The notes beneath the pieces are model-generated. The model was not told the origin of the DNA. It was given only the letters and a program-made list of their open reading frames with translations, and made no database searches. A DNA stretch of 64,000 nt from Parcubacteria bacterium C7867-006 (GTDB lineage Bacteria; Patescibacteriota; Minisyncoccia; Phycocordibacterales; DATDWN01). Below, one piece after another: positions 3,803 to 64,000 of this stretch. Location of the stretch: positions 68,782 through 132,781 of the forward strand of contig LFCP01000004.1 in the NCBI GenBank assembly GCA_001189155.1, written 5' to 3'. The position numbers and the translations under genes are program-made. The stretch's first letter is position 1, and each line of letters opens with the position of its first letter.

Positions 3803-5908
3803 CTATCTCAGCAAGTCTTTGTTTCTAGGATTTACAATTTTTTTAGGTTTTTGTGACTCGAGAATTTTTTGTAGCTCAAGTATTTCATCTCTTAATATAG
3901 CGGCAGTTTCAAAATCTAATATTTTTACTGCACCATCCATTTGTTTTTCTTTCTGTCGTATTAGTTTAGCCGGATCTTTTTCTAACATTTTTTTATCAAC
4001 TTCCAACAAAGCAGAAACTGTTTTTTGATGTTCGTTTCGAAGCTGGTCAGTAATATCTTGAATTTTTTTGATAATTGTTTTTGGAGTTATGCCATGTTTT
4101 TTATTGTACTCCATCTGTAGTGTTCTACGTCTAGCAGTTTCATCTATAGCGTACTTCATAGATTTTGTAACTGTATCTGCATAAAGAATCACACGACCAT
4201 CTATGTTTCTAGCTGCACGACCAATAATCTGTATGAGTGAAGTCTCACTTCGGAGAAAACCTTCTTTATCTGCATCCAAAATTCCAATCAGTTTAACTTC
4301 TGGCAAATCCAAACCTTCTCGCAATAGATTTACACCAACAAGAACATCAAAAGTACCCCTTCGAAGATTTGTTAATATTTCAATTCTTTCTATTGTTTTG
4401 ATATCGCTATGAAGATACTCTGCCTTGATTCCCTTTTCTTTCAAATATTCACTCAGATCCTCTGCCATTTTTTTAGTTAGAGTTGTTGCGATTACCCTAC
4501 CACCATCTTTTATAGACTTCTCAGCCTCCTTTATAAAATCTTTCACCTGACCAGGATAACTCCCCTTTTCAACAATAGGTTTTACGTCTACAACTGGATC
4601 AATCAATCCTGTTGGTCGTATAACTTGTTCAACAACTTGTTCTGAATGTTCTTTTTCGTATGTACTAGGTGTAGCTGATGTGTAAATAACCTGTCCAACC
4701 CTCTCCTCAAACTCGTTGAACTTTAGAGGTCTATTGTCTTTTGCACTTGGAAGTCTGAAACCGAAATCAACTAGACTCTGTTTTCTGGAAGCATCTCCAC
4801 CGTACATCGCGCCGATTTGAGGAACTGACACATGAGACTCATCTATAACAGTCAAAAAATCTGGTGAGCCATCTTTATTGTGCGGAAAGTATGCAAGTAA
4901 TGTATCAGGAGCCTCTCCAGGTTTTTTACCAGAAAAATGTCGCGAGTAATTTTCTATTCCATTGCAATACCCCATCTCACGGATAAGTGCTAGATCATAT
5001 GTTGTGCGTCTTTTTAATCTCTCCGCTTCAAGATTTTTTCCTTCTTTCTCTAACTCCTTTAAACGTTTAGCCAATTCTGCCTTAATTGATTTAAATGCTC
5101 TCTCATTCTGCTCGTTAGTTGAAATAAAATGTTTTGCTGGAAAAAGGAAAAAAGCATCTACTTCTTTTATTATTCCACGAGTTATAGCATCAATAACTAA
5201 AATTTGTTTTATTTTACTTTCATCTATTTCAATTCGATAAATAACTTTTTCTGAAATGGGCATTATCTCTAACATATTACCTATAGCTCTGAACATTCCC
5301 GGTTTTAAGTCTGCAGTAGTTCTTTCAAAATGCACATCAATCAAGTTTCGAATAAAATCTGCTCTAGAAATTTTTTCTCCCTTACTGATTTTTACATTTA
5401 CTTTTTCATACTCAACAGGAGAACCTAAACCATAGATACAGGAAACTGACGCGACAATGATTACATCTTTTCTAGTTAAAAGAGCTTGTGTTGAAGCATG
5501 GCGAAGTCTATCTATCTCCTCATTTATCATTGCCTCTTTCTCTATGTATGTATCAGAAACTGGCATATAGGCTTCTGGCTGATAATAGTCATAATAAGAA
5601 ACAAAGTAATGCACGGCATTGTTTGGAAAAAATTCTCTATATTCCTGAGCTAGTTGTGCTGCGAGAGTTTTATTGTGAGCTATAACCAAAGTCGGCTTTT
5701 GAACCTCCTGTATAACGTTTGCAATAGTGTAAGTTTTTCCAGAACCAGTCACACCCAAAAGAGTCTGATGTTTCAGACCCTTTTTTACACCGTCGACCAA
5801 ACCCTTTATAGCTTTTGGTTGATCCCCAGCTGGAGGATATTCTCTTTTAATCTCAAATTTCATTTTCACACTATACAATAAATTTAGATATAGAAAAAGG
5901 CGACACAT
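3803..5908 (-). CDS. uvrB: excinuclease ABC subunit B UvrB (likely true start 5863, MKFEIKREYPPAGDQP)
   Basis: GVTGSGKT Walker A, helicase motifs, UvrB/UvrC interaction C-terminus; ORF-track N-terminal extension runs into a terminator hairpin loop. Confidence 0.95.
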   Translation of the reverse strand: MCRLFLYLNLLYSVKMKFEIKREYPPAGDQPKAIKGLVDGVKKGLKHQTLLGVTGSGKTYTIANVIQEVQKPTLVIAHNKTLAAQLAQEYREFFPNNAVHYFVSYYDYYQPEAYMPVSDTYIEKEAMINEEIDRLRHASTQALLTRKDVIIVASVSCIYGLGSPVEYEKVNVKISKGEKISRADFIRNLIDVHFERTTADLKPGMFRAIGNMLEIMPISEKVIYRIEIDESKIKQILVIDAITRGIIKEVDAFFLFPAKHFISTNEQNERAFKSIKAELAKRLKELEKEGKNLEAERLKRRTTYDLALIREMGYCNGIENYSRHFSGKKPGEAPDTLLAYFPHNKDGSPDFLTVIDESHVSVPQIGAMYGGDASRKQSLVDFGFRLPSAKDNRPLKFNEFEERVGQVIYTSATPSTYEKEHSEQVVEQVIRPTGLIDPVVDVKPIVEKGSYPGQVKDFIKEAEKSIKDGGRVIATTLTKKMAEDLSEYLKEKGIKAEYLHSDIKTIERIEILTNLRRGTFDVLVGVNLLREGLDLPEVKLIGILDADKEGFLRSETSLIQIIGRAARNIDGRVILYADTVTKSMKYAIDETARRRTLQMEYNKKHGITPKTIIKKIQDITDQLRNEHQKTVSALLEVDKKMLEKDPAKLIRQKEKQMDGAVKILDFETAAILRDEILELQKILESQKPKKIVNPRNKDLLR

Positions 5909-7601: not shown

Positions 7602-8096
7602 TTAATTCTCTACTTTCAATAGTTCGACCTCAAAAATAAGTGTAGATCCCCCTGGTATAGGTCCATAATCCTGATATCCATAACCGTACTCTGGTGGAAC
7701 AGAAAGAAGTCTCTTTCCTCCAACTCGCATGCCAACTATTCCCTCATCCCATCCTTTTATTACCTGACCAGAACCAAGTACGAACTGGAATGGTTCACCA
7801 CGAGAAACTGAACTATCAAAAACTCTTCCATCAACAAAACGTCCTGTATAGTGAACAACAACTCTACTACCCACACTTGCAATCTCTCCTGAACCAAACT
7901 CTTCATCCTGAACTAAAAGTTGTGATTGTCCTTGCGCCATATTTATTGGGTTTATTGAATCATTATTACTAAAAATAGAAACTAGTGTCTGACCGAAAAC
8001 AAAGAAAAATCCTACTATAAAGACAGCCACAGTAACAGCTATCCATTCTTTTTGACTTAATTTTTTCATAAGACTAATTATATTACGCCTAAACAC
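7602..8096 (-). CDS. FKBP-type peptidyl-prolyl cis-trans isomerase with N-terminal membrane anchor
   Basis: VVVHYTGRFVDGRVFDSS...GWDEGIVGMRVGGKR...FEVELLKV FKBP signature. Confidence 0.8.
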   Translation of the reverse strand: MFRRNIISLMKKLSQKEWIAVTVAVFIVGFFFVFGQTLVSIFSNNDSINPINMAQGQSQLLVQDEEFGSGEIASVGSRVVVHYTGRFVDGRVFDSSVSRGEPFQFVLGSGQVIKGWDEGIVGMRVGGKRLLSVPPEYGYGYQDYGPIPGGSTLIFEVELLKVEN

Positions 8097-8121
8097 TAAT
8101 GTAAATTAGGAAAACTAGGCT

Positions 8122-8877
8122 ATGGCGTATATAATGCCCAATATGTCAAAATCAAAGAAAACTCCTATTGAGAAAAAGGATGTTTATCCAATGAGAATAA
8201 ACAAATACCTAGCACACAAAGGACTGGCTACCCGCACAGGAGTAGATGAACTAATAAAAAGCAAAAAAATCCTTATAAATGGAGTTCTGGCTAAACTTGG
8301 AGACAAAGTTTCTGAAACTGATAAAGTTGAAGTTAGAGGTGTTCACAATAAAAAATATATTTATTTGGCTTACAACAAACCGGTTGGAATAGTTAGTACA
8401 AATCCTCAAGGTGACGAGAAAAGTATTATGGAGAACATAAAAATAAAAGAAAAAGTCTTCCCTGTTGGCCGACTAGACAAAGAATCTCATGGACTTATTA
8501 TTTTAACCAATGACGGCAGAGTAACAGATAGACTTCTAAATCCAGATAAAGATCATGAGAAAGAATATATCGTTAAAGTTGATAGAGCCTACACACCAGG
8601 GTTTATTAGAAATATGGAAAATGGAGTTGATATTGGAGATGGTATAACAAAAAAAGCAAAACTTAAAAAAATCAAAGAAAACATTTTTAGTATCACTTTA
8701 ACAGAAGGTAAAAATCGCCAGATTAGAAGAATGACTGAAAAACTTGGATACACTGTTCGAGATTTACAAAGAGTTCGTATACAAAATATTGAACTTGGTA
8801 AAACTCCAGTCAATAGTTATAGAGAAATAAATGGTGAGGAAAAGACAGAATTTTTAAAAAGTATAGGTTTAGAATAA
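8122..8877 (+). CDS. RNA pseudouridine synthase (RsuA/RluB family, S4 domain)
   Basis: S4 RNA-binding N-terminus, PVGRLDKESHGLIILTNDG catalytic Asp motif. Confidence 0.8.
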   Translation: MAYIMPNMSKSKKTPIEKKDVYPMRINKYLAHKGLATRTGVDELIKSKKILINGVLAKLGDKVSETDKVEVRGVHNKKYIYLAYNKPVGIVSTNPQGDEKSIMENIKIKEKVFPVGRLDKESHGLIILTNDGRVTDRLLNPDKDHEKEYIVKVDRAYTPGFIRNMENGVDIGDGITKKAKLKKIKENIFSITLTEGKNRQIRRMTEKLGYTVRDLQRVRIQNIELGKTPVNSYREINGEEKTEFLKSIGLE

Positions 8878-20875: not shown

Positions 20876-23779
20876 TTATTGAGCGTTTGGATTCATTGAC
20901 CAAGGAATCAATTCTGGAAGTTGAGCCATCAACTCTGGACACTCAAGGTTATTTATCTTTGTAACTGTTGATAGATAAACTAGACCTGTTGCGCTTGTTA
21001 GTCCCCAAGGCTTTAGAACATCATCAGAATATTTTGTTTGGAAGTTTTTAACTACTCCGTATGTCATTGGTCCGTAGAAACCTGTGATAGGCAAACTTGT
21101 TCCCATATTTTTGTTCAAGAATTCTTGAAGTTTCTTAACCTGACTAGCATTGTTCTTTGAACTACCTAGTCTAAAGTGTGTATTCAAGTAAAGTCCGCAA
21201 GACTCACCTAGAACTTCACCTGCTGTAGTAGAAGCTCCCAAAACCTGACCTCCACCTCCTAGTGAACCTACAATAGGACCATTACCTCCACCTCCTCCAC
21301 TTGGTGGTGTTACTGGTGTAGGTGCTGGAATAAATGCAGCACAATCTGGGTCAGCTAGATCAACTAGTCTATCACCATCATTGTCTATACCATCAGTACA
21401 CAATGGCTGTGTGTTTTCTACTGGTTGTGCTGTAACAATAACTGTTCGTGTTGTACTAGTTGAAGCATCTTCACTGTCCATAGCTGTATAAGTAAGTGTG
21501 TATGTTCCTGGAGTTGATGTAGAAACTGTTCCAGTCACAACTATAGAGGAAGTAATATCTCCATCCTCTGGGTCTGTTGATGATGCACCTGGGTCAACAA
21601 ATGTATCACCTACTAGCAAGTTGATTGGGTTGTTTCCAAAAAGAGTAATGCTTGGTAAGTCGTTAACTGGTTTTATGTCAATAGAAACTGTTGCTGTACT
21701 ACTGTTTGTTACACCGTCGTTAGCAACAAATGTGAATGAATCAGAACCATTTTCGTTTGCATTAGGAGTATATGTAAATGCTCCTGTGTTTAAGTCAAAT
21801 GATGTAAGTGTTCCTTTTGTTGGGTTTGATGTTGTAGCAAATGTAAGTGTTTGTGCTGGAAGATCTACGTCAGTTGCAGTCATAGCTGTAGATGTTGCTG
21901 TATCCTCATCTGTTGAAACAGACAAGTCGTTTGCAACTGGTGCTTCATTTACTTCGTTAACTGTAACTTTAAAAGTTTTTGAATCCTGTAGAGCTCCATC
22001 AGTAACAGATGCTGTGAAGTTATAAACTCCAGGACCTTGGTCCTCTGCTGGTGTCCAATCAAATATTCCTGTTACAGAATCTAGTGTTACTCCAGATGGA
22101 ACTGAACCAACTAGAGAGTAAACTAAAGTATCAAGTGGACTATCTAGGTCATTAGCAGAAATAGTGAAGTTTAGATTACTCAATTCATTTACAACATAAT
22201 CAGAAATTACATTCAATATAGGTGCATTATCATTTACGTTTATAGTAACTGTTGCTGAACTAGTTAAAGTTCCGTCAGAAACCTCGTATGTGAATGAGTC
22301 TAGTCCTTGATAGTCAGTTGCTGGTGTATATGTGAACGATCCATCTGGATTCATTATTACACTAGCCCCAACAACTATTGGTTGAGTTAGAATAGAAAAT
22401 GTAAGTGTGTTTGGTAGAAGAGGAACCAAATCAGAGTCTGTAGCAACTACAGTGTCATTTACTGCTGTATTTTGGTGAGTTGATACTGTAAGAGACTGAG
22501 CAACTGGTGCAACATTTACTTCATTTACAACAACTGTTACTGCTTTTGTATCTGTTCCTCCATTTCCATCAGAAACTAATACATTAAAGTTATATGTTGC
22601 TGGGCCCTGATTCTCTGCTGGTGTCCAAGTAAATACTCCTGTAGAAGAATCTATACCGGCTCCTGTTGGTTCACCAGAAAGTGAGTATGTCATTACATCT
22701 CCAGAATCTACATCAGTAGCAGAAGCTGTAAATGATAGATTTGTAAGTTCATCTAGAGCCACAGATGTTGTTGTGCTTATAGAAAGTACTGGGTTATCAT
22801 TTACGGAGTTAACTGTAATAGAAACTGTAGCAGTATTACTATCTACTGTTCCATCATAAACTTTGAAGTTAAATGAATCAGAACCGTTGAAGTCTGCATT
22901 TGGAGTATATGTGAATGCACCTGTAGTTGAGTTGAAAGATGTTATTGTTCCGTTTGCTGGGTTTGAAGTTGTTGCGTATGTAAGAGAGTCTCCATCTATA
23001 TCAGAAGCTGCAAGGTTTGAAGAAACATCTGTATCTTCATTTATAGATATAGCAGTACTTGATGCAACTGGTGCATCGTTCTCTGGAGTAACAGTGATTG
23101 TTGTTGTTGCAACATTACTGTATCCAAGTCCATCAGAAACCTTGAATGAGAATGCGTCTCCTCCGTTATAGTTTAATGACGGAGTATATGTAACTTGATT
23201 ACCTGAAACAGAACCTAGAGTTCCGTGTGTAGGACCGTTTACAATGAAATATGTAAGAGGTTGTGCTGGAGTATCAGAATCTGTAGCTGTCATAGTCACA
23301 ACCTTTGCTGTATCTTCAGGTGTTGTTACTGAACTACCAGTTGCAGCAGGAGCTGTATTTGGAGGACAAGTTGGAACTATTTGAGTAGCATCAATCTGAT
23401 TATCTTTACCATTTGGTTTTGAGTGGTATACCATTACAGAAACAGTAGTTGTTGGAGTTGATGAATAGTGATGTGGTCCAGCTGAAAAAGTAAAACTGTA
23501 TGGTGAAGTTGTATCTCCTCCTAGGTCTAATGGAATATTTGTCTCTATGTCTCCCGTATTCCAAACAACCTGAACGTGATACTGGTCTATTTGACTACCA
23601 TTTGCTGGAGTTACAGTACCACTACCAGTTACTGTTAAATCAGTACCTAAACATGGATTTCCTGACGTAACAACAGAATCAATCGAAGCAGTTGGTTGAT
23701 CAGCTAATGCAACACTTGGGATGAGTGTGTATGGCACCGCCAAAACCAGAGTCAGAACTAACGAAGTTATTTTTTTCAT
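20876..23779 (-). CDS. large secreted adhesin-like protein: tandem cadherin-like/VCBS domains (VNDAPV, VNEAPVA, VNDNPV), DNDGD calcium motif, C-terminal peptidoglycan-binding domain
   Basis: signal peptide, >6 internally repeated about 95-aa modules, PG_binding_1-like C-terminus (LQEFLNK...GFYGPMTYGVVKNFQ). Confidence 0.7.
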   Translation of the reverse strand: MKKITSLVLTLVLAVPYTLIPSVALADQPTASIDSVVTSGNPCLGTDLTVTGSGTVTPANGSQIDQYHVQVVWNTGDIETNIPLDLGGDTTSPYSFTFSAGPHHYSSTPTTTVSVMVYHSKPNGKDNQIDATQIVPTCPPNTAPAATGSSVTTPEDTAKVVTMTATDSDTPAQPLTYFIVNGPTHGTLGSVSGNQVTYTPSLNYNGGDAFSFKVSDGLGYSNVATTTITVTPENDAPVASSTAISINEDTDVSSNLAASDIDGDSLTYATTSNPANGTITSFNSTTGAFTYTPNADFNGSDSFNFKVYDGTVDSNTATVSITVNSVNDNPVLSISTTTSVALDELTNLSFTASATDVDSGDVMTYSLSGEPTGAGIDSSTGVFTWTPAENQGPATYNFNVLVSDGNGGTDTKAVTVVVNEVNVAPVAQSLTVSTHQNTAVNDTVVATDSDLVPLLPNTLTFSILTQPIVVGASVIMNPDGSFTYTPATDYQGLDSFTYEVSDGTLTSSATVTINVNDNAPILNVISDYVVNELSNLNFTISANDLDSPLDTLVYSLVGSVPSGVTLDSVTGIFDWTPAEDQGPGVYNFTASVTDGALQDSKTFKVTVNEVNEAPVANDLSVSTDEDTATSTAMTATDVDLPAQTLTFATTSNPTKGTLTSFDLNTGAFTYTPNANENGSDSFTFVANDGVTNSSTATVSIDIKPVNDLPSITLFGNNPINLLVGDTFVDPGASSTDPEDGDITSSIVVTGTVSTSTPGTYTLTYTAMDSEDASTSTTRTVIVTAQPVENTQPLCTDGIDNDGDRLVDLADPDCAAFIPAPTPVTPPSGGGGGNGPIVGSLGGGGQVLGASTTAGEVLGESCGLYLNTHFRLGSSKNNASQVKKLQEFLNKNMGTSLPITGFYGPMTYGVVKNFQTKYSDDVLKPWGLTSATGLVYLSTVTKINNLECPELMAQLPELIPWSMNPNAQ

Positions 23780-24126
23780 AATTTTTATAAATTTAATAAT
23801 TTTTATAACGCAAAAACCGGCCTAAAAAGACCGGTTATGCTATTAGCTCCCCACAGCCCAAGCGTCCAAATACAGACTGTGGTTCATCGCCTTCTTTAGT
23901 AACAACTAAACCCTAAATATCTAACTAAATCGTATTCTACACTAACTTAAAATATCGTCAATGGTTGAGCAAATTCACTAAATTTTATTAAAATTGATTA
24001 AAAAATTAAATTATTATTATAAAAATATCATTTTTTTTAATTTTTTTAAAAAATAATGAAAATTTAGAAATTATAAAACTTCACAACGATGTGAAGTTTT
24101 ATAAAACAAAAACTAGAAAACTTTTG

Positions 24127-50847: not shown

Positions 50848-50921
50848 TGGGAGATCGTCTAACGGTAGGACAGAGGCCTTTGAAGCCTTTAATTGGGGTT
50901 CGATTCCCTGTCTCCCAGCCA
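50848..50921 (+). tRNA. tRNA-Gln (anticodon UUG), CCA encoded
   Basis: cloverleaf folded by hand: acceptor U1-A72...7 bp, D-loop GG, AC loop cUUUGaa, T-loop TTCGATT, discriminator G, CCA. Confidence 0.85.
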
Positions 50922-56008: not shown

Positions 56009-57331
56009 TTAATCGAGTGTTATCTTTTTATTATTTAACAATATTTTACTATTCAAACAGCCTAATAATTCTCTTTTCTCTAAACCACTAGCTTCCTGTA
56101 AGACATACTTTGCATAATTTCGTATATCAATGTCATTAACCTCAATTTTTTCTTTTGACCCGATGATTATTCGTTGAAATTTTTTAACTCTTTCTACTTC
56201 AGTTTTAATTTTTTCTTTTATACCTAATTCATCTAGGTTAATTTTATTCATTAGTTGAACAAGTTGTTCAATCAAATCTTCTTCATTTATGTATCCTGAT
56301 TTACAGTGTTTATCTTTAAACTTAGTGCAACCGTAGTAAACGTAACGATGTACATTTCCATTTTTCTGCTTTTTAAATTTCTCATCTGCCGTAATACCAG
56401 ATCCGCATAAACCACATGTCATTAATTTTGTGAAGGCAAATTCTTTATCTTCTACTCGGATAATTTGTCCATTTATTTGAGCTTGAACCTGATCAAAAAG
56501 TTCTTTTGTAATTAGAGGTTCGTGTACACCCTTATACCAAAGACCACTTTTCTTAGGGAACTCAAAAGTGCCATAATAAAAATCGCTTTTTAGAATTAAA
56601 TAAATATTGCTTAAGGTTAATCCTTTGTTTCCGTTAGGGGTTTTAAAGTTAAGTTCAAATTTGAGCCAATGAAATATCTTTTTACCACTCCACTTTTCGT
56701 ATGCAACTTTCTCAAACATTTTTTTAATAACATGACCTCGGTCTGGATCAATATACACACAACCTTTTCTATCAACCCTCATTTCATTGAGGTATCCCAT
56801 GGGAGCGGGTGCTGGCCATAAACCCATCTCACATCTAGTTCTCAATCCACGCTTAACATTGATGCTTTTATTATCGTTCTCAAGTTTTGCTTGAGAACAC
56901 AAAATCATTAATAAGAACTTTTCGTTTGGTGAATTCTGGAATGACTGACCATAAGTTCTAATTTGATGTAGTTTCTTTTCATCCATCAGGTCTACCAATG
57001 TGCCGAGGTCACCAGCATTTCTGCTTAAACGATCTGGTGCCCATGTCAAAATACCAGTGTACCTTCCAGAATTTAGATCTCGAATAAGCTCATTAAACAC
57101 AGGTCTTTGACCTGATGCTTTTGCAGAGTGAGACTCACGCCTAATATCTACTACCTCAAGATTATCTCTTTCCGCAATCTGTAGCATCTCTTTTACTTGA
57201 GAGTCAATTGATAATGCCTGTTTCTCGTCAGATTCAGTTGATTTACGAGCATATAGGCAATATCTCACTTTATCTATAGGCACTACATCTGGAGCCCATA
57301 TTTGAGCCCCTCTGTTTATTACTGCTTCCAT
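56009..57331 (-). mobile_element. large serine recombinase (resolvase/integrase) gene
   Basis: N-terminal resolvase domain YARKSTESDEKQALSIDSQ, recombinase domain, C-terminal zinc ribbon CGLCGS...C. Confidence 0.85.
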
Positions 57332-57373: not shown

Positions 57374-57949
57374 TTAAGTATCTTTGTCCACATCTGGATC
57401 CAGCATCTTTTTGGCTATTTCTTCCTTCTCAAAATCAATCTTCCATTCTTTGTAGGATGCATTGAATATGTCTATTAGATTTTGCTCATCGTTACAGAAT
57501 ATTTTAATAAAAGGTTCAAATATATGGTAAGCAATATCTTCCTCATAATTCTTTTCAAGATTGTGAATAATTGCAAACATACTTTCGAAATTGTTACCGT
57601 TCTCTAGAGGTTTCTTTACAATGTCGGTATCTCTGGTCAACAAGGAACTATAATGTATACCTTTTTCTTTTTGCATATACCTCGAATCATTATGAGATAA
57701 CCAAAAAGTCGCAGACTTATGTTCTCCTCGTTGGACTCCTTTTATAATTACAGTTTCAGCAGATCCGTTTATAGCTTCTCGTCCAACAAATAAAGCCATG
57801 ATGACTTTTTTATGAAAGGATTGGTGTCGCATAATCCATCTATAAAAAGTACTATGGTCTATTCCAACTTTATTGCAGACATATCGAATATTTGGAATTA
57901 TTTCTAATTCCTTAACAATTCTTTTGGTTATGTCATCTCCATACCTCAT
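57374..57949 (-). CDS. phage-like HTH protein (terminase-small-subunit-like N-terminus)
   Basis: N-terminal HTH; context next to recombinase. Confidence 0.3.
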   Translation of the reverse strand: MRYGDDITKRIVKELEIIPNIRYVCNKVGIDHSTFYRWIMRHQSFHKKVIMALFVGREAINGSAETVIIKGVQRGEHKSATFWLSHNDSRYMQKEKGIHYSSLLTRDTDIVKKPLENGNNFESMFAIIHNLEKNYEEDIAYHIFEPFIKIFCNDEQNLIDIFNASYKEWKIDFEKEEIAKKMLDPDVDKDT

Positions 57950-57951
57950 AG

Positions 57952-59223
57952 CTAATTTATCTTATGAGCCTTGTCACCGGTAAAGATTTCATACCTTTTA
58001 ATTATTAAATCTACAAAGACTGGGTCGATTTCAACCATAAAACACTTTCTTTTAAGTTGGTGAGATGCAATAAGTTCTCCGCCACTTCCACCGAAAAGAG
58101 AAAGGATATTGTCTCCGATTTTTGTACAGCGTTTAATTGGTTTGTCGTGAAGAGTGATTGGCTTTTCTGTTGGATGTTCGTAGAGGTTTCCAGATAATCT
58201 TCGTATTGCCCACACATCAAACATTTCCATATAGTTTTCAATCATCTCATTACCGGTACCAATATCTTTATTTAACACTTCATCATAATTTCTATGATGT
58301 GGAGAAAGATAGGGCTTTCCTTTTGTTCCATAAACACACGGTTCATACACTTTGGAAAATGCTATTTGAGGGGTTGGGTTAGCTATTCCTTTTAACCATA
58401 TACAGATTCTCTTAAAATCAATACCGATTTCTTTATAGATGGAAGCAATAAGTGGTGTATACGTTTGATCACAGTAATAGAAGAAGTGAGCATTGGTGTT
58501 TGTAACAGCAAAAGCGTTTTTAATTGTTTTCTTTAGAAACTCCTCGTAATCTTTATCATTTTTATTATCAGTACTTGAACCGCCATAGTTTTTAGTTCCT
58601 CCAATTCCATTTTTGTAGGATAGGTTAATGTTGTAAATTGGGTCACAATAAACCATATCAATTTTCTCCTGACCAACGACTTTTTCTACTGACTTAATGT
58701 CGGTAGAGTCACCACACAATAGTCTGTGTGGGCCAAGTTGATACAAATCACCAAGTTTACTTTTTGGTTTTTTTATTTTCTCTAACTCCTTTTCAGTAGA
58801 GAATCCATCCTCTTCCGTATCCAGATCAATAAATACTCCATCGAGTTCCTCGTCTGAAAAACCAATATCTTCAAGAAATTTTTCATCAAACTCACTTAAT
58901 AGCTCAATATCAAATTCACCTTGATTCTTATGTAAACGAATAGCAAGTTCCTTTTCCTTATCAATCTCTGAAATACTTGTGTACACAACTGGTACTTCTT
59001 TGATACCGAGTTCTTTTGCAACCCTTAAACGACCATGACCACCAATTAGAATGTTTTTCCTATTGGGTGCGCCATTTAGAATTAAAGGGTCAACAAAACC
59101 AAATCTTTTTACAGATTCAGATATTTGAGTGAGTTGTTCCTTCGAGAACTTTTTTGGATTGTACTCATTAGGTTTAATTTTACTCACAGGCACATAACAA
59201 ACAGACAACTTTTCATTGTTCAT
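57952..59223 (-). CDS. ParB-like nuclease domain fused to beta-class N6/N4 DNA methyltransferase
   Basis: ParB N-terminus; DPIYNIN (DPPY) then FGGSGGE SAM motif (motif IV before I). Confidence 0.75.
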   Translation of the reverse strand: MNNEKLSVCYVPVSKIKPNEYNPKKFSKEQLTQISESVKRFGFVDPLILNGAPNRKNILIGGHGRLRVAKELGIKEVPVVYTSISEIDKEKELAIRLHKNQGEFDIELLSEFDEKFLEDIGFSDEELDGVFIDLDTEEDGFSTEKELEKIKKPKSKLGDLYQLGPHRLLCGDSTDIKSVEKVVGQEKIDMVYCDPIYNINLSYKNGIGGTKNYGGSSTDNKNDKDYEEFLKKTIKNAFAVTNTNAHFFYYCDQTYTPLIASIYKEIGIDFKRICIWLKGIANPTPQIAFSKVYEPCVYGTKGKPYLSPHHRNYDEVLNKDIGTGNEMIENYMEMFDVWAIRRLSGNLYEHPTEKPITLHDKPIKRCTKIGDNILSLFGGSGGELIASHQLKRKCFMVEIDPVFVDLIIKRYEIFTGDKAHKIN

Positions 59224-59552
59224 AATATTTTATTGCTAACTAATAAGAGAGAAGGGCTTTTAAAGAAAAAGCCACTTCTTATAACTCTGCAGTAAACAAA
59301 GTTATCCGAATGAGTGACATTTTAGGTAGACTATCTAGGTTTGTATTCAAATTATAGAACGATAGGGGCCAAAAAGTCGATATGACTTATCCACAGATAT
59401 TTAATCATGTCAAGAGTGTAAAGAATGTAAATCGCTTCGCAGGGATTGAGTGATGTGATAGGGTGGAAAAATAGCACCCAAAAGTGCTATGATAAGAGCA
59501 CAATTTAATAAGTATAAGTAGCCTAAACCTAGTTTTCACTAGGCATGGTGAA

Positions 59553-59690
59553 AAGTCCTATCAAGCATAAAGAACCCATCATGGGGTCGCTTGATAGGCC
59601 ATATCGGGAAACCGGTATGAGAGACTTCGGTCTCTACCCGTGGTGGGCTTTTTGTGTATCTGCCACGGCATTAGCAAGTCCTATCAAGCA
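59553..59690 (+). promoter_or_regulatory. structured leader: 15-nt direct repeat AAGTCCTATCAAGCA (59553 and 59676) plus inverted partner GCTTGATAGG (59589) and hairpin GAGAGAC-ttcg-GTCTCT followed by T5
   Basis: seen directly; second repeat covers the RBS of the HNH gene; middle arm can pair with either flanking copy. Confidence 0.3.
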
Positions 59691-59693
59691 AAA

Positions 59694-60128
59694 ATGATAA
59701 ATTTTGAACATCCCGAAGATCGGGAGTATTTTGCTAATTTATTAGCAAATGGAGATGTAAAAAAATTAGACAGAGATTTTTCTGAGCTTTTTGATTTTGA
59801 ACATCTTGCAATGAAAAGATGGAGATTTAATAAGATTAGGAAAAAGATTTTAAAAGAACTTATTGAGAAATACGGCAATGAGTGTCAGTTAAAAATCCAT
59901 CCTGATTGTAGTAAGGTGCAAAAATTTGAACCTGATCACATTATTCCGCTAGCTTCAAATGAGTTAAATAAAAAATTAAGAAAAATGGCTCGTTTTTCCA
60001 GTGAGAAAGTTGAGCAACAGAGTTTCGGATCAAATAATATGAAAAACCTCACTTTGGCATGTAAAAGATGTAATGCTTTCAAAAAACATCGTATGTTTTT
60101 GTCAATAAATTTTGGTCTTCAAAAATGA
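59694..60128 (+). CDS. HNH endonuclease
   Basis: C..C...EPDHIIP...N...C..CN HNH fold motifs; start taken at ATG 59694 downstream of the repeat-bearing leader. Confidence 0.7.
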   Translation: MINFEHPEDREYFANLLANGDVKKLDRDFSELFDFEHLAMKRWRFNKIRKKILKELIEKYGNECQLKIHPDCSKVQKFEPDHIIPLASNELNKKLRKMARFSSEKVEQQSFGSNNMKNLTLACKRCNAFKKHRMFLSINFGLQK

Positions 60129-60147
60129 GCTAAAAAATGTTAAAATC

Positions 60148-61596
60148 ATGGCAATTATGTTTGAACAAGCTTTTAAGAATATAGATAAGATCCTCCGTAA
60201 CGATAATGCGGGTGGCGCGATGGATTATATAGAACAGACTTCCTGGATAATTTTTTTGAAGTATCTAGATGATCTAGAGACTGAACGTGAAAAGTCAGCG
60301 AAACTTTCTGGTAAAAAATACTCTTATATTCTTGATGGAGAATACAGATGGAGTTCTTGGGCATGCCCAATGAGCAAAGATAGAAAAATTGACTATAACA
60401 AAGCCCTTACAGGTGATGATCTCAATACTTTTGTTGACCAGAAACTCTTTCCGTATTTAAAGAAATTCAAATCAGAAAATTCAGATACTATTGAGTATAA
60501 AATTGGAGAGATTTTTAGTGAACTCAAAAATAAAATAAAAAGTGGATATGCTCTGCGTGACATTCTTAATATCGTGAATGGTCTACATTTCCAATCAAGC
60601 GAGGAAAAACATGAACTTTCTCACTTGTATGAGAGTAAAATTGCTGAAATGGGAAATGCTGGTCGTGACGGTGGACAATATTACACTCCTCGTCCACTTA
60701 TTCGAACTATTGTAAAAATGGTAAATCCAAAAATTGGAGAAACAATATACGATGGAGCATGCGGATCAGCAGGGTTTCTTATAGAAGCCTTTGACTATCT
60801 TACAGAAAACAAACAAAAACTTTCTCTCAAGGAGTACCAGACACTTCAGGAAAAAACTTTTTATGGAAAAGAAAAAATTACTTTGCCGTATATTATTGGT
60901 GTAATGAACATGATCTTGCATGGCATAGATGCTCCAAATATTATTCACACAAATACTCTCTCTGAGAATCTTACTGATATTCAAGAAAAAGATCGTTTTG
61001 ATGTCATTCTCGCCAACCCTCCCTTTGGAGGAGGTGAAAGAAAAGAGGTTCAACAAAACTTTCCGATAAAGAGTGGTGAAACTGCATATTTATTCTTGCA
61101 ACATTTTATAAAAAAACTTAAAGCAGGTGGTCGAGCTGGTATTGTAATTAAAAACACATTTCTTTCTAACGGCGATGCCTCAAATTTACGAAAAGAGTTT
61201 TTAAATAGTTGTGATGTTCACACAATTCTAGATTTACCATCTGGAGTATTCCAAGCTGGAGTAAAAACAGTAGTTTTATTTTTTGAGAAAGGTAAGACAA
61301 CAAAGAAAATATGGTATTACCAACTTAATCTTGGTCGAAATTTAGGTAAGGGCAATCCTTTAAGTGAGTTAGACCTGGCGGAATTTGTGAAATTACAGAA
61401 GACAAAAGCAGATAGCGAAAACTCATGGAGTATTAATGTCTCTGATATTGATAAAGAAAGTTTTGATTTATCTGTAAAAAATCCGAGTAAGAAAGATGGT
61501 GGTGTCTTGCGTGAACCAAAAGAAATTATTGATGAAATGCAAAAACTTGATACAGAAATTAAAAGTAGTGTGATGGGTATTCAAAAACTATTATGA
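60148..61596 (+). CDS. hsdM: Type I restriction-modification N6-adenine DNA methyltransferase subunit
   Basis: NPPFGG motif IV, HsdM N-terminal domain, GSAGFL motif I. Confidence 0.9.
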   Translation: MAIMFEQAFKNIDKILRNDNAGGAMDYIEQTSWIIFLKYLDDLETEREKSAKLSGKKYSYILDGEYRWSSWACPMSKDRKIDYNKALTGDDLNTFVDQKLFPYLKKFKSENSDTIEYKIGEIFSELKNKIKSGYALRDILNIVNGLHFQSSEEKHELSHLYESKIAEMGNAGRDGGQYYTPRPLIRTIVKMVNPKIGETIYDGACGSAGFLIEAFDYLTENKQKLSLKEYQTLQEKTFYGKEKITLPYIIGVMNMILHGIDAPNIIHTNTLSENLTDIQEKDRFDVILANPPFGGGERKEVQQNFPIKSGETAYLFLQHFIKKLKAGGRAGIVIKNTFLSNGDASNLRKEFLNSCDVHTILDLPSGVFQAGVKTVVLFFEKGKTTKKIWYYQLNLGRNLGKGNPLSELDLAEFVKLQKTKADSENSWSINVSDIDKESFDLSVKNPSKKDGGVLREPKEIIDEMQKLDTEIKSSVMGIQKLL

Positions 61597-62342
61597 AAAA
61601 ATTTGAGTATAATAAAGAAAATCTCAGATTAATTGCTTTTATTATCGCAAGTGCTTCATCAGGCACACTTTTTACAAAACTTTTACAAGATTCTGGTTGG
61701 AATGTTGTAAGTACAGCATCAGAAGAGTATAGAAAATCTGGTAAATCTAAAGAAGATTATCTTTTTGATCAATTTAATAAGATTGCCGAGGAGGGTAGGA
61801 TAGATGTACTAGAATTTATAATAGATAAGACTCTTTCAAAAAGTAGTGTTTATTTTAAAAAAGGTGATAAAGATTATAAATTTCCTAGAGATTCTTTTGG
61901 TGAACTAAAAAAGAAAGTTGGTAAAAAGGAGAAAAGTGATAAAAAGAAAAATAGCAAATTATTCGATGACAGAAAGTTACATGGATCGGTTGGTTTTGCC
62001 AGCAAAGACCTTTTCGTTTCAGAATTTTATTCACAGTCTATTTTTGAAGCATGTAAACTTTTGAATAAGAGAGTGCAAGAGCTGTCAAAATCTACAAAAG
62101 ATGGAAAGTCATTAATGCTAGATGTTTTTAGTGTAAATAATCCTATTTTAAAAATAAGTGATAATCAATCTCAGTCAGATAAAGATGAGCAAGAAGGATT
62201 TATGCACTTATTTGCAGGTGTTATGCACGGAATTCGGAATCCTAAAGGGCATGAGTTAATAAATCTAATAGATCCACTTAGAACACTAGAGTACCTCAGC
62301 TTTATTAGTCTTCTTTTTAGGAAACTAGATGAATTAAAGTAA
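61593..62342 (+). CDS. Ymh-family (TIGR02391-like) protein with HEPN-type Rx4H motif, inserted between hsdM and hsdS
   Basis: ATGA overlap with hsdM; C-terminal HGIRNPKGHE; positional hallmark between M and S subunits. Confidence 0.5.
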   Translation: MKKFEYNKENLRLIAFIIASASSGTLFTKLLQDSGWNVVSTASEEYRKSGKSKEDYLFDQFNKIAEEGRIDVLEFIIDKTLSKSSVYFKKGDKDYKFPRDSFGELKKKVGKKEKSDKKKNSKLFDDRKLHGSVGFASKDLFVSEFYSQSIFEACKLLNKRVQELSKSTKDGKSLMLDVFSVNNPILKISDNQSQSDKDEQEGFMHLFAGVMHGIRNPKGHELINLIDPLRTLEYLSFISLLFRKLDELK

Positions 62343-62343
62343 T

Positions 62344-64000
62344 ATGAAAACTAGCTGGCAAATAAAAGAACTTGGAGAAATAATTAAATTAGAATATGGA
62401 AAACCACTTCCAGATTCTAAGAGACATCCTGACGGTAAGTATCCTGTATATGGTGCTAATGGGGAAAAAAATAGGACTAACGAATTTTTTTATAATAAAC
62501 CAAGCATAATCGTTGGTCGCAAGGGTTCTGCCGGAGAACTGAATCTAACTGAAGAAAAATTCTGGCCTCTTGATGTAACTTATTTCGTTACTTTTGATTC
62601 CACTAAATATGATTTAGGTTTTATTTATAATCTTCTTAATACATTAGAGCTTACAAAACTAGCAAAGGGTGTAAAGCCGGGAATAAATAGAAATGATGTT
62701 TATTCTATTAAAGTAGATACTCCACCAATCTCTGAGCAAAAGCGAATTGTGAAAAAATTAGATGAGGTTTTTGAGAAAGTAACAAAGGCAAAGGAGGCCG
62801 CAGAAAAAAACCTACAAAATTCGAAAAAGCTCTTTGAGTCCTATTTGAATGGTATCTTTGTGAATCCGAGTAAAGACTGGGATGAAAGATTTCTAGGAGA
62901 AGTATTACAGAAGACAGAAACTGTTGATCCAACAAAAAAACCTAAAGAAAAGTTTGTATATATTGATGTTTCAAGTGTAGATAAGGAAACAAAAGAGATA
63001 GTGAACACATCTTTACTTATAGGAAAAGACGCACCTAGTCGAGCAAGAAAACTAGTTAAAACTAATGATGTTATTTTTGCTACTGTTAGACCAACACATG
63101 CTAGAGTGGCCATAATAACAGAGAAATATAACAACCAAGTTTGTAGCACCGGATATTTTATTTTGAGGACAAATGACCTGATGAATAATAAGTTAGTATT
63201 TTATTTCCTACTCACTTCTAGTTTTAATAGACAGATGGAAAAATTACAAAAGGGCGCAAGTTATCCTGCTGTTACAGATAGTGAAGTAAAAAATATAAAG
63301 ATTTTATTTCCGAAGTCTCTTGCTGAGCAAAAAAAGATTATAGATAAACTTGATGTGCTTTCAATTGAAACAAATAAGTTAGAGAAAATATATAAAAAGA
63401 AACTCGCTTGTTTGGAAGAACTTAAAAAGTCTATTTTAAAACAAGCTTTTGAGGGGAAACTAGTTGTTCAAGAACAAACAAGTTCTCTTCCTGTCCCATC
63501 ACCATATATTCGTAATCAAGTTCATGCTGCGATTGTTGGACAAGTATCAAAAGATGGTGGAGAGACTACAGAAGTTGCTGTCGCTAAATATGACCATTTA
63601 CTACAAGAAATTTTTGGCATATCACTAGGTTATCAATTTCAAACGCATCTATTTGGGCCATTTGATGTAGAAATAAAAAAATTAGTTTCTTCTGGTCTTA
63701 GCCCTAGAAATAGATGGTTTGTAAAAAGAAACGGTATGATTGTCGCTGGTAGTAATATTACTGCATTACTTTCACGTTCAAGTAACTTATATAGAAATGC
63801 ACAGACAGCTATGATTGAACTGGCGAGATTGGGAATAACAAAGATGAATACTGACAAAGTTGAGTTATTATCGACTGTCTGTCATGCAATAAAAGAATGC
63901 AGATCTACTGATTTAAAAATTATTAGAAATTTTATGGATCAATGGCAAACAAACAATAATCAAACAAAGGCTCAAAAATTTTCTTTAGAACAGACTAAAA
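62344..64000 (+). CDS. hsdS: Type I R-M specificity subunit HsdS with two TRDs and an additional C-terminal extension; 3' partial (runs off window)
   Basis: TRD1, central conserved region, TRD2, distal conserved LKKSILKQAFEGKL, then more than 170 further residues; no stop before 64000. Confidence 0.8.
   Translation, partial: MKTSWQIKELGEIIKLEYGKPLPDSKRHPDGKYPVYGANGEKNRTNEFFYNKPSIIVGRKGSAGELNLTEEKFWPLDVTYFVTFDSTKYDLGFIYNLLNTLELTKLAKGVKPGINRNDVYSIKVDTPPISEQKRIVKKLDEVFEKVTKAKEAAEKNLQNSKKLFESYLNGIFVNPSKDWDERFLGEVLQKTETVDPTKKPKEKFVYIDVSSVDKETKEIVNTSLLIGKDAPSRARKLVKTNDVIFATVRPTHARVAIITEKYNNQVCSTGYFILRTNDLMNNKLVFYFLLTSSFNRQMEKLQKGASYPAVTDSEVKNIKILFPKSLAEQKKIIDKLDVLSIETNKLEKIYKKKLACLEELKKSILKQAFEGKLVVQEQTSSLPVPSPYIRNQVHAAIVGQVSKDGGETTEVAVAKYDHLLQEIFGISLGYQFQTHLFGPFDVEIKKLVSSGLSPRNRWFVKRNGMIVAGSNITALLSRSSNLYRNAQTAMIELARLGITKMNTDKVELLSTVCHAIKECRSTDLKIIRNFMDQWQTNNNQTKAQKFSLEQTK

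Follow-up and report, generated by a model that had tools for sequence, protein, structure and literature searches.

The window analysed here is a stretch of DNA of 64,000 nucleotides from an uncultured Parcubacteria metagenome-assembled genome (MAG). Within it, the ORF listing and matches to PF09509 and TIGR02391 place ymh, a gene encoding a 249-aa HEPN protein of the Ymh/TIGR02391 family, at 61593..62342 on the plus strand. The gene on its upstream side, hsdM (60148..61596, plus strand), encodes a Type I methyltransferase subunit that matches N6_Mtase (7.6e-63), HsdM_N and the PADLOC model MTase_I (7.8e-155). On its downstream side, hsdS (62344..64000, plus strand) encodes the Type I specificity subunit (Methylase_S, 5.8e-30; PADLOC Specificity_I, 1.2e-52) and runs off the window. 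These model matches bear out the two flanking genes named in an earlier note on this DNA. Direct reading of the sequence likewise confirmed that the 249-aa gene begins inside hsdM, with the start codon of ymh (ATG, 61593-61595) and the stop codon of hsdM (TGA, 61594-61596) sharing an ATGA at 61593..61596 on the plus strand. This overlap, which points to translational coupling, is also present in the homologous locus L003. At its other end, ymh terminates with TAA at 62340-62342, and the ATG of hsdS follows one base later, at 62344. No competing ORF of at least 50 aa was found on the opposite strand at ymh.

The start of hsdM is probably the ATG at 60148 or 60157 rather than the TTG at 60112 given by the ORF-listing program, because HsdM homologues (from L036 and L038) align from residue 16. 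With hsdM starting there, the small HNH-motif ORF upstream of it (59694..60128, plus strand, with ATG as the probable start) does not overlap it. The scores of this ORF are borderline (27.5 bits for HNH_5, equal to the cut-off of that model, and 22.9 bits for PF01844, with a cut-off of 21.4), and no relatives of it were detected in homologous loci L001-L032. The proposal that the HNH gene forms one composite locus with the restriction-modification (R-M) and ymh genes is thus not supported. A full-length LOOT RNA precedes the HNH gene. Farther upstream, a gene for a large serine recombinase (56009..57331, minus strand) carries Resolvase, Recombinase and Zn_ribbon_recom domains and is the probable mobility gene of an island bearing the R-M/ymh operon.

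The remainder of the operon could be followed on a 2.7-kb metagenomic contig (L001), whose Ymh protein is identical to that of the window and whose HsdS is nearly so. There, HsdS is 571 aa at full length, with a C-terminal extension of ~195 aa, and the gene directly after hsdS begins MNEAETRAEYVDPKLKEAGWGVVEGS, a typical HsdR N-terminus. Since hsdR thus lies right after hsdS in L001, the Type I system is complete, with the order hsdM-ymh-hsdS-hsdR. The HsdS extension was considered as a general docking site for the Ymh protein and rejected, because HsdS in five other loci with ymh in the same slot is 345-402 aa long and lacks the extension.

The Ymh family and its HEPN domain

Assignment of the product to the Ymh family is secure. 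PF09509 (Hypoth_Ymh) matches residues 127-245 with 110.9 bits (cut-off, 25; E 4.3e-32) over model positions 1-119 of 119, and TIGR02391 matches with 85 bits (cut-off, 39.45; E 4.3e-24). The HMM search suggested by the earlier note was therefore clearly positive, with both models above their curated cut-offs. The corresponding domain, a Ymh-type HEPN domain, covers residues 127-249 (61971..62339, plus strand), and its predicted structure is the four-helix up-down HEPN fold. As had been claimed, the Rx4H motif of HEPN proteins is present in the C-terminal region, as RNPKGH at residues 215-220 (R215 to H220; 62235..62252, plus strand), and its dyad is conserved: across 42 homologues, H220 never varies and R215 is found in 90% or more of the sequences, and D198, E199 and Q200 do not vary either. 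The identity as a Ymh/HEPN protein accordingly holds on family models, predicted fold and conserved R215 and H220. The catalytic loop itself (residues 217-222) is modelled with a pLDDT below 50.

From these features, the HEPN domain would be a metal-independent RNase with R215 and H220 in its active site, which, by analogy with other HEPN nucleases, is probably formed across a HEPN dimer. An alternative is that the domain is non-catalytic and binds RNA or protein in a regulatory role, as MtlR and the HEPN domain of sacsin do; such a protein might modulate the Type I system, for example in restriction alleviation. HEPN families without activity typically lose the Rx4H motif (PMC3710099), whereas here the dyad is retained, and ymh is also found without any Type I system. 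We therefore regard a non-catalytic role as highly improbable.

A Ymh HEPN gene in a Type I R-M operon is of a kind already known. Anantharaman et al. (2013; PMC3710099) assigned Ymh to the HEPN superfamily, listed it as occurring in operons with R-M genes and predicted that it is an RNase with links to both R-M and Abi systems, and the protein identical to that of the window is named 'MAG: putative protein Ymh [Parcubacteria bacterium C7867-006]' at NCBI. Because the arrangement was catalogued in 2013 and is annotated automatically, the window locus adds only another example in this respect. Literature searches yielded no paper on TIGR02391 and, for HEPN genes combined with hsdM and hsdS, nothing specific. 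The present protein agrees with the described family in its full model match, Rx4H motif, HEPN fold and place in an R-M operon. It appears to differ in its N-terminal half: the described N-terminal partners of Ymh are pMORC, AbiJ-NTD1/2 and AbiTii, whereas the N-terminal domain here matches no Pfam model. Residues 1-112 gave no Pfam match to AbiTii, the AbiJ-NTDs or pMORC, in a library that may lack some AbiJ-NTD models, and may be distantly related to one of these domains.

Approximately 80 full-length homologues were collected, with 52-84% identity and nearly all ~249 aa long. Their named sources are mostly Parcubacteria, Patescibacteria, Microgenomates, Dojkabacteria and Saccharibacteria, with one MAG labelled Bdellovibrionales. 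Proteins from phages and plasmids of cultured organisms match the HEPN half only, and no relatives were present in the IMG/VR viral contigs scanned. One such plasmid-borne example, from Klebsiella, is a TIGR02391 protein paired with a restriction endonuclease; among the more distant HEPN-only relatives, approximately 3 of 18 loci are Type I-linked.

Among defence-system models, the HEPN region matches Aga_HEPN (Argonaute-associated; 2.6e-12) and, better, PD-Lambda-3_B (PADLOC PDLC03987; 7e-17). PD-lambda-3 is an Escherichia coli system in experimental use as an abortive-infection system (PMC13190303), and it resembles the window protein in having an N-terminal domain of ~130 aa followed by a Ymh HEPN domain. 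The likeness is confined to the HEPN half, with residues 124-247 aligned to positions 137-262 of the 270 in the model, and the N-terminal halves lack similarity. In addition, the listing of PD-lambda-3 includes a PD(D/E)XK nuclease domain, whereas no such gene lies at the window locus and no PD-Lambda-3_A match was found among the scanned neighbours of ymh with the PADLOC models.

An N-terminal domain with a predicted death-like fold

The earlier note had described an N-terminal region of 150 aa as lacking a family. The lack of a family stood, since residues 1-112 gave no Pfam match at E<=10 except for a spurious RAP match; the length did not, because the PF09509 match begins at residue 127 and the family-less part is hence ~125 aa. 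Nor is this part simply Lys-rich, as had been stated. It consists of a conserved globular domain (residues 1-112; 61593..61928, plus strand), predicted as a six-helix bundle with an insert, followed by a Lys-rich, poorly conserved linker at approximately residues 113-126 (61929..61970, plus strand). The Lys-rich stretch KKKVGKKEKSDKKKNSK corresponds to residues 106-122. Across residues 99-128 the mean column identity is 0.59 and the pI is 10, and pLDDT drops around residues 111-120.

Across the ~80 full-length homologues, the mean column identity is 0.77 over residues 1-98 and 0.75 over the HEPN domain, and 14 residues of the N-terminal part are invariant (N10, R12, A21, S23, G24, D33, W36, K53, R69, Y87, F88, K89, Y95 and F97). 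This pattern of conservation indicates that the N-terminal domain is under selection and is conserved as strongly as the HEPN domain. When residues 1-112 were modelled alone with AlphaFold2, the prediction had a pLDDT of 88.1 and a pTM of 0.82, with helices at residues 8-21, 24-33, 42-49, 53-66, 70-81 and 99-109; between helices 5 and 6 lies a conserved extended insert of 17 residues (82-98, YFK..Y.F).

Fold searches with this model returned CARD8, the caspase-1 CARD, the CRADD and PIDD death domains, and the CARDs of NOD1, CARD9 and NLRC4, and the following twenty matches were mostly death-fold chains as well. The full-length model on its own recovered several of the same CARD matches, and the predicted six-helix bundle superposes on solved death-fold domains. 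At the sequence level, no death-fold family was matched in Pfam or by the domain profile against PDB sequences; the latter search gave no match of any kind. The P-loop protein YorR, suggested as a relative by phmmer against the PDB (E 0.021, residues 24-98), was rejected because the predicted domain is all-helical and has no sheet, and because the profile search yielded no PDB match.

When the N-terminal profile was run against 1.84 billion representative proteins, five real matches were obtained, all of them fragments or members of the same subfamily, in addition to two repeat-protein matches near E 1e-5. The domain was not found in other architectures by this search, and thus, at HMMER sensitivity, it is confined to this subfamily of the candidate phyla radiation (CPR). 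A profile comparison by hhalign against 12 neighbour proteins gave probabilities of no more than 1.2% throughout. This set comprised the HsdS C-terminal extension, the 386-392-aa partners described below, a 130/135-aa pair, AlbA_2, DUF3800, GmrSD_N, the helicase, HerA and a 453-aa protein without a family match, and there is consequently no evidence for a homotypic partner of the N-terminal domain among them.

The N-terminal domain of this subfamily is thus undescribed and CPR-restricted and has a predicted CARD/death-like fold; it would form the regulatory part of the protein. The bacterial CARD-like and death-like domains known so far (Kaur et al. 2021, PMC8195603; Wein et al., PMC10312443) either form fusions with proteases or are found in pairs with NTPase sensors. 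The domain described here differs in being fused directly to a HEPN RNase without a STAND/ATPase partner, in lacking a second copy in the neighbour genes compared by hhalign, and in its unusually conserved 17-residue insert. It is tempting to go further and to propose that this is a genuine CARD-like death-fold module, whose signal-induced homotypic oligomerisation joins HEPN domains in the manner of an inflammasome, with the hsdM-linked clade sensing the state of the Type I complex. We consider this extended proposal unlikely. If true, it would describe a death-fold/RNase suicide effector in ultra-small CPR bacteria that is tied to R-M and operates without a STAND/NLR-type sensor.

Genomic contexts and the relation to restriction

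The genomic neighbourhoods of full-length homologues were compared in a sample of 15 distinct contexts. Six of these are hsdM-linked and are spread over two HsdM lineages, which share 33-39% identity with each other (~70% within each). Ymh proteins are 69-84% identical across the two lineages; between loci with HsdM proteins of no more than 35-39% identity, Ymh identity is still 69-77%. The order hsdM-ymh-hsdS occurs in the window and its counterpart L001 and in L036, whereas additional genes share the slot elsewhere: hsdR-hsdM-ymh-DUF3800-hsdS in L003, L004 and L007; hsdM followed at some distance by an AlbA_2 protein, ymh, hsdS and RhuM in L006; hsdM, a ClpP-like gene, ymh, a 247-aa ORF and hsdS in L037; and hsdM, ORFs of 131 and 136 aa, ymh, hsdS, a 139-aa ORF and hsdR in L038.

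The remaining contexts are varied. In L002 and L034, ymh follows genes for proteins of 130 and 135 aa in a cassette without an R-M system; the same cassette is found within the M/S slot in L038, which speaks for its being self-sufficient. In L005, L008 and L011, a gene for a 386-392-aa protein without an assigned family lies directly upstream of ymh. Loci L009, L010 and L026 combine a ResIII helicase, GmrSD_N/AlbA_2, ymh, an N6_N4 methylase and a HerA-like gene. L033 carries genes for a 267-aa protein, Ymh, a Dam-like methylase and GmrSD, and L035 those for an SNF2/PLD protein, an Eco57I-like (N6-adenine) methylase, a 181-aa protein, Ymh and DUF2726. All 15 contexts contain defence or mobile genes, namely those for Type I R-M, GmrSD, other methylases, Schlafen/AlbA_2, DUF3800, RhuM and serine recombinases. 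In every context, ymh lies 0-33 nt downstream of a co-directional gene. Genes are commonly packed this closely in the compact genomes of CPR bacteria, and the spacing may have little meaning. No conserved DNA marking cassette ends was found beyond the ORF at the borders of ymh.

The hsdM/hsdS slot is therefore the commonest context of ymh but not the sole one, and other passengers use it too. The earlier statement that Ymh genes occupy exactly this slot thus needs the qualification that ymh also occurs elsewhere; the broader suggestion that they piggy-back on Type I R-M fits both the listing in PMC3710099 and these six contexts. Homologues of the window serine recombinase, with 57-63% identity, stand beside ymh loci in L002, L035 and L038, and a tRNA gene lies just upstream in L002 and L033. 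Together, the recombinase neighbours and the variety of contexts mark ymh as mobile defence cargo of CPR genomes.

Such mobility bears on the main rival explanation, in which Ymh acts as a guard of the restriction system. Here, the protein would be bound and kept latent by HsdM2S or R2M2S, and a phage anti-restriction protein would free the RNase to cleave tRNA or mRNA, causing abortive infection. The model for such a guard is PrrC, whose gene lies within the EcoprrI Type I locus and which the Stp peptide of phage T4 releases. Like ymh, the genes of PrrC and RloC specify HEPN-type nucleases, are embedded in a Type I hsd operon and follow a second-line-of-defence logic; moreover, pMORC-Ymh fusions in R-M neighbourhoods were proposed as PrrC/RloC analogues (Anantharaman et al. 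2013, PMC3710099). The ATGA overlap with hsdM and the 1-nt gap to hsdS suggest stoichiometric co-expression. In addition, the six hsdM-linked homologues, although drawn from two HsdM lineages, form one group in a neighbour-joining tree. This clustering may point to an adaptation particular to Type I systems, something not required of a passenger that is wholly self-contained; bootstrap support for the group, however, is weak (115/200, 58%).

Other observations count against a guard. Proteins of 55-71% identity are encoded beside unrelated partners at loci that lack Type I genes (L002, L005, L008, L009 and L033-L035), the 130-aa/135-aa/Ymh cassette occurs both in and out of the slot, and AlbA_2, DUF3800 and ClpP-like passengers share the slot with ymh. 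Because unrelated passengers occupy it, the M/S slot looks like a general insertion hotspot. Furthermore, PrrC and RloC belong to another HEPN family and carry N-terminal ABC/Rad50-like ATPase domains. Ymh has no regulatory ATPase domain of this type: no NTPase family was matched in its product among the Pfam and TIGR models, its N-terminal domain is a helical bundle of ~110 aa, and many of its homologues have no R-M neighbour. Direct, PrrC-like control of Ymh by the R-M complex is possible, but we find the guard model rather doubtful.

A further explanation would make ymh an addiction or stabilisation module, in which a HEPN toxin is neutralised as long as the operon is expressed and loss of the island kills the cell, so that the module keeps the mobile R-M island and has no anti-phage role. 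The position of the locus on an island with a serine recombinase would suit such a function, as would the presence of HEPN toxins of toxin-antitoxin pairs (5yep, 7ae2 and 8xdj) among the structural neighbours. Unlike in HEPN-MNT toxin-antitoxin systems, however, no nucleotidyltransferase gene adjoins ymh in the window, and neither does any other recognisable antitoxin gene; the upstream partners differ between loci, and the family matches defence-system models. We judge an addiction module to be quite improbable. Because no antitoxin-like neighbour is present and the catalytic dyad is conserved, both the addiction module and the non-catalytic regulator are less likely than the guard.

A proposed role in layered defence

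The reading that we favour, and to which we give about an even chance, is that Ymh is a two-domain abortive-infection RNase co-expressed with a restriction system. The C-terminal Ymh-type HEPN domain would be the killing part and would cleave RNA, whereas the N-terminal six-helix domain would serve as the switch that keeps the RNase off until an infection signal arrives or oligomerisation occurs. Whereas the family, the fold prediction, the conservation of the motif, the place in the operon and the portability follow from the observations above, the RNase activity, the toxicity, the regulation by the N-terminal domain and the role in defence are inferred. The gene is a portable passenger, placed in each case directly behind another defence gene; in the window, it sits between hsdM and hsdS, in a Type I R-M operon that is complete and lies on an island with a serine recombinase. 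Being translationally coupled to hsdM, ymh would therefore be produced whenever the restriction system is. The outcome would be a layered defence in which restriction acts first and, on its failure, RNA cleavage and growth arrest follow.

The portability of ymh between defence systems is a new finding. This CPR subfamily shows a compact sensor-effector gene moving among very different recipients, including two Type I lineages, GmrSD-type loci, an Eco57I-like methylase/SNF2-PLD locus and small uncharacterised partners, often on islands with a shared serine recombinase. It is thus well suited to the question of whether the accessory toxins of R-M operons are coupled to restriction or only co-expressed with it. 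If the predicted CARD/death-like fold is real, the N-terminal domain would, at 112 residues, be easily assayed for self-assembly, and death-fold control of suicide effectors would extend to RNases and to Patescibacteria.

Genes accompanying ymh

Comparison of the loci carrying homologues of the window ymh uncovered two sets of conserved genes directly upstream. The first, a pair encoding proteins of ~130 and ~135 aa, was found in L002 (9195..10000), L034 (2845..3646), and L038 (4189..4996), with 55-70% identity between loci, and ymh lies immediately 3' of it every time. Neither gene matched a Pfam family. The pair occurs both inside the hsdM/hsdS slot and away from any R-M system, and forms a three-gene cassette together with ymh. 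The second set accompanies more distant ymh homologues, which are directly preceded by a gene for a conserved protein of 386-392 aa (L005, 8821..9999; L008, 6805..7983; L011, 5722..6882). These proteins share 54-61% identity, no Pfam family was matched, and they may act as the partner of ymh in a two-gene system.

Two further observations are each confined to a single locus. Directly upstream of the ymh homologue in L035, a 181-aa protein (4423..4968) without a match in a Pfam search carries an Rx4H motif of its own, RNKFAH, and is possibly another HEPN protein, as yet unclassified, placed in tandem with the ymh homologue. In L010, from a complete Dojkabacteria genome (CP129477.1), the ymh homologue (8001..8696) is apparently frameshifted near its C-terminus, with the rest of the conserved residues in another frame, which points to a pseudogene or to a sequencing error.

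The hsdM/hsdS slot and its flanking genes

Other passengers were also found in the slot and its surroundings in ymh-containing Type I operons, namely a Schlafen/AlbA_2 protein, RhuM, DUF3800, and a ClpP-like protein (L006, 1593..2387 and 4388..5326; L003, 10749..11546; L037, 4453..4998); the slot thus behaves like a hotspot for accessory defence genes.

Downstream of ymh, the full-length HsdS comprises 571 aa, extending ~195 aa past the usual C-terminal conserved helix (...LKQAFEGKL). This extension (window 63469..64000, HsdS residues 376 onward) is complete in L001 (1977..2564), a 2.7-kb contig encoding a near-identical HsdS. A Pfam search with the extension gave no match, and no similarity to the predicted helical N-terminal domain of Ymh was found. 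In the other five ymh-containing slots, HsdS measures 345-402 aa and has no extension.

Upstream, the hsdM start listed by the ORF caller, TTG 60112 (window 60112..60157 region), overlaps the small HNH ORF. Because HsdM homologues align only from residue 16 of the listed protein, ATG 60148 or 60157 is the likely start, which would leave a short gap behind the HNH stop (60128).

A serine recombinase and LOOT RNA beside ymh loci

Divergent from the window R-M genes, a single minus-strand operon encodes a large serine recombinase (56009..57331), a 191-aa protein (57374..57949), and a ParB_N-N6_N4 DNA methylase fusion (57952..59223). To its left lie tRNA-Gln (50848..50921) and copper/heavy-metal genes (P-type ATPase, DUF305, DsbD_2-HMA, and cupredoxin). 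Elsewhere in the window, a cyclic-di-GMP-II riboswitch aptamer (23820..23903, minus strand; Rfam model matched over its full length, 63.4 bits against 53.5) precedes a 967-aa ORF (20876..23779).

Between the recombinase operon and the HNH ORF, a full-length LOOT RNA was detected on the plus strand (59520..59635; RF03000, 88.2 bits against a gathering score of 46.4). A second copy in L035 (9012..9133, plus strand; 75.7 bits) lies 187 nt from a serine recombinase homologous to that of the window, and LOOT may be part of this recombinase-borne element. Recombinase homologues (57-63% identity) adjoin the ymh loci of L002, L035, and L038, a pattern suggesting that CPR bacteria carry a family of integrative defence islands.
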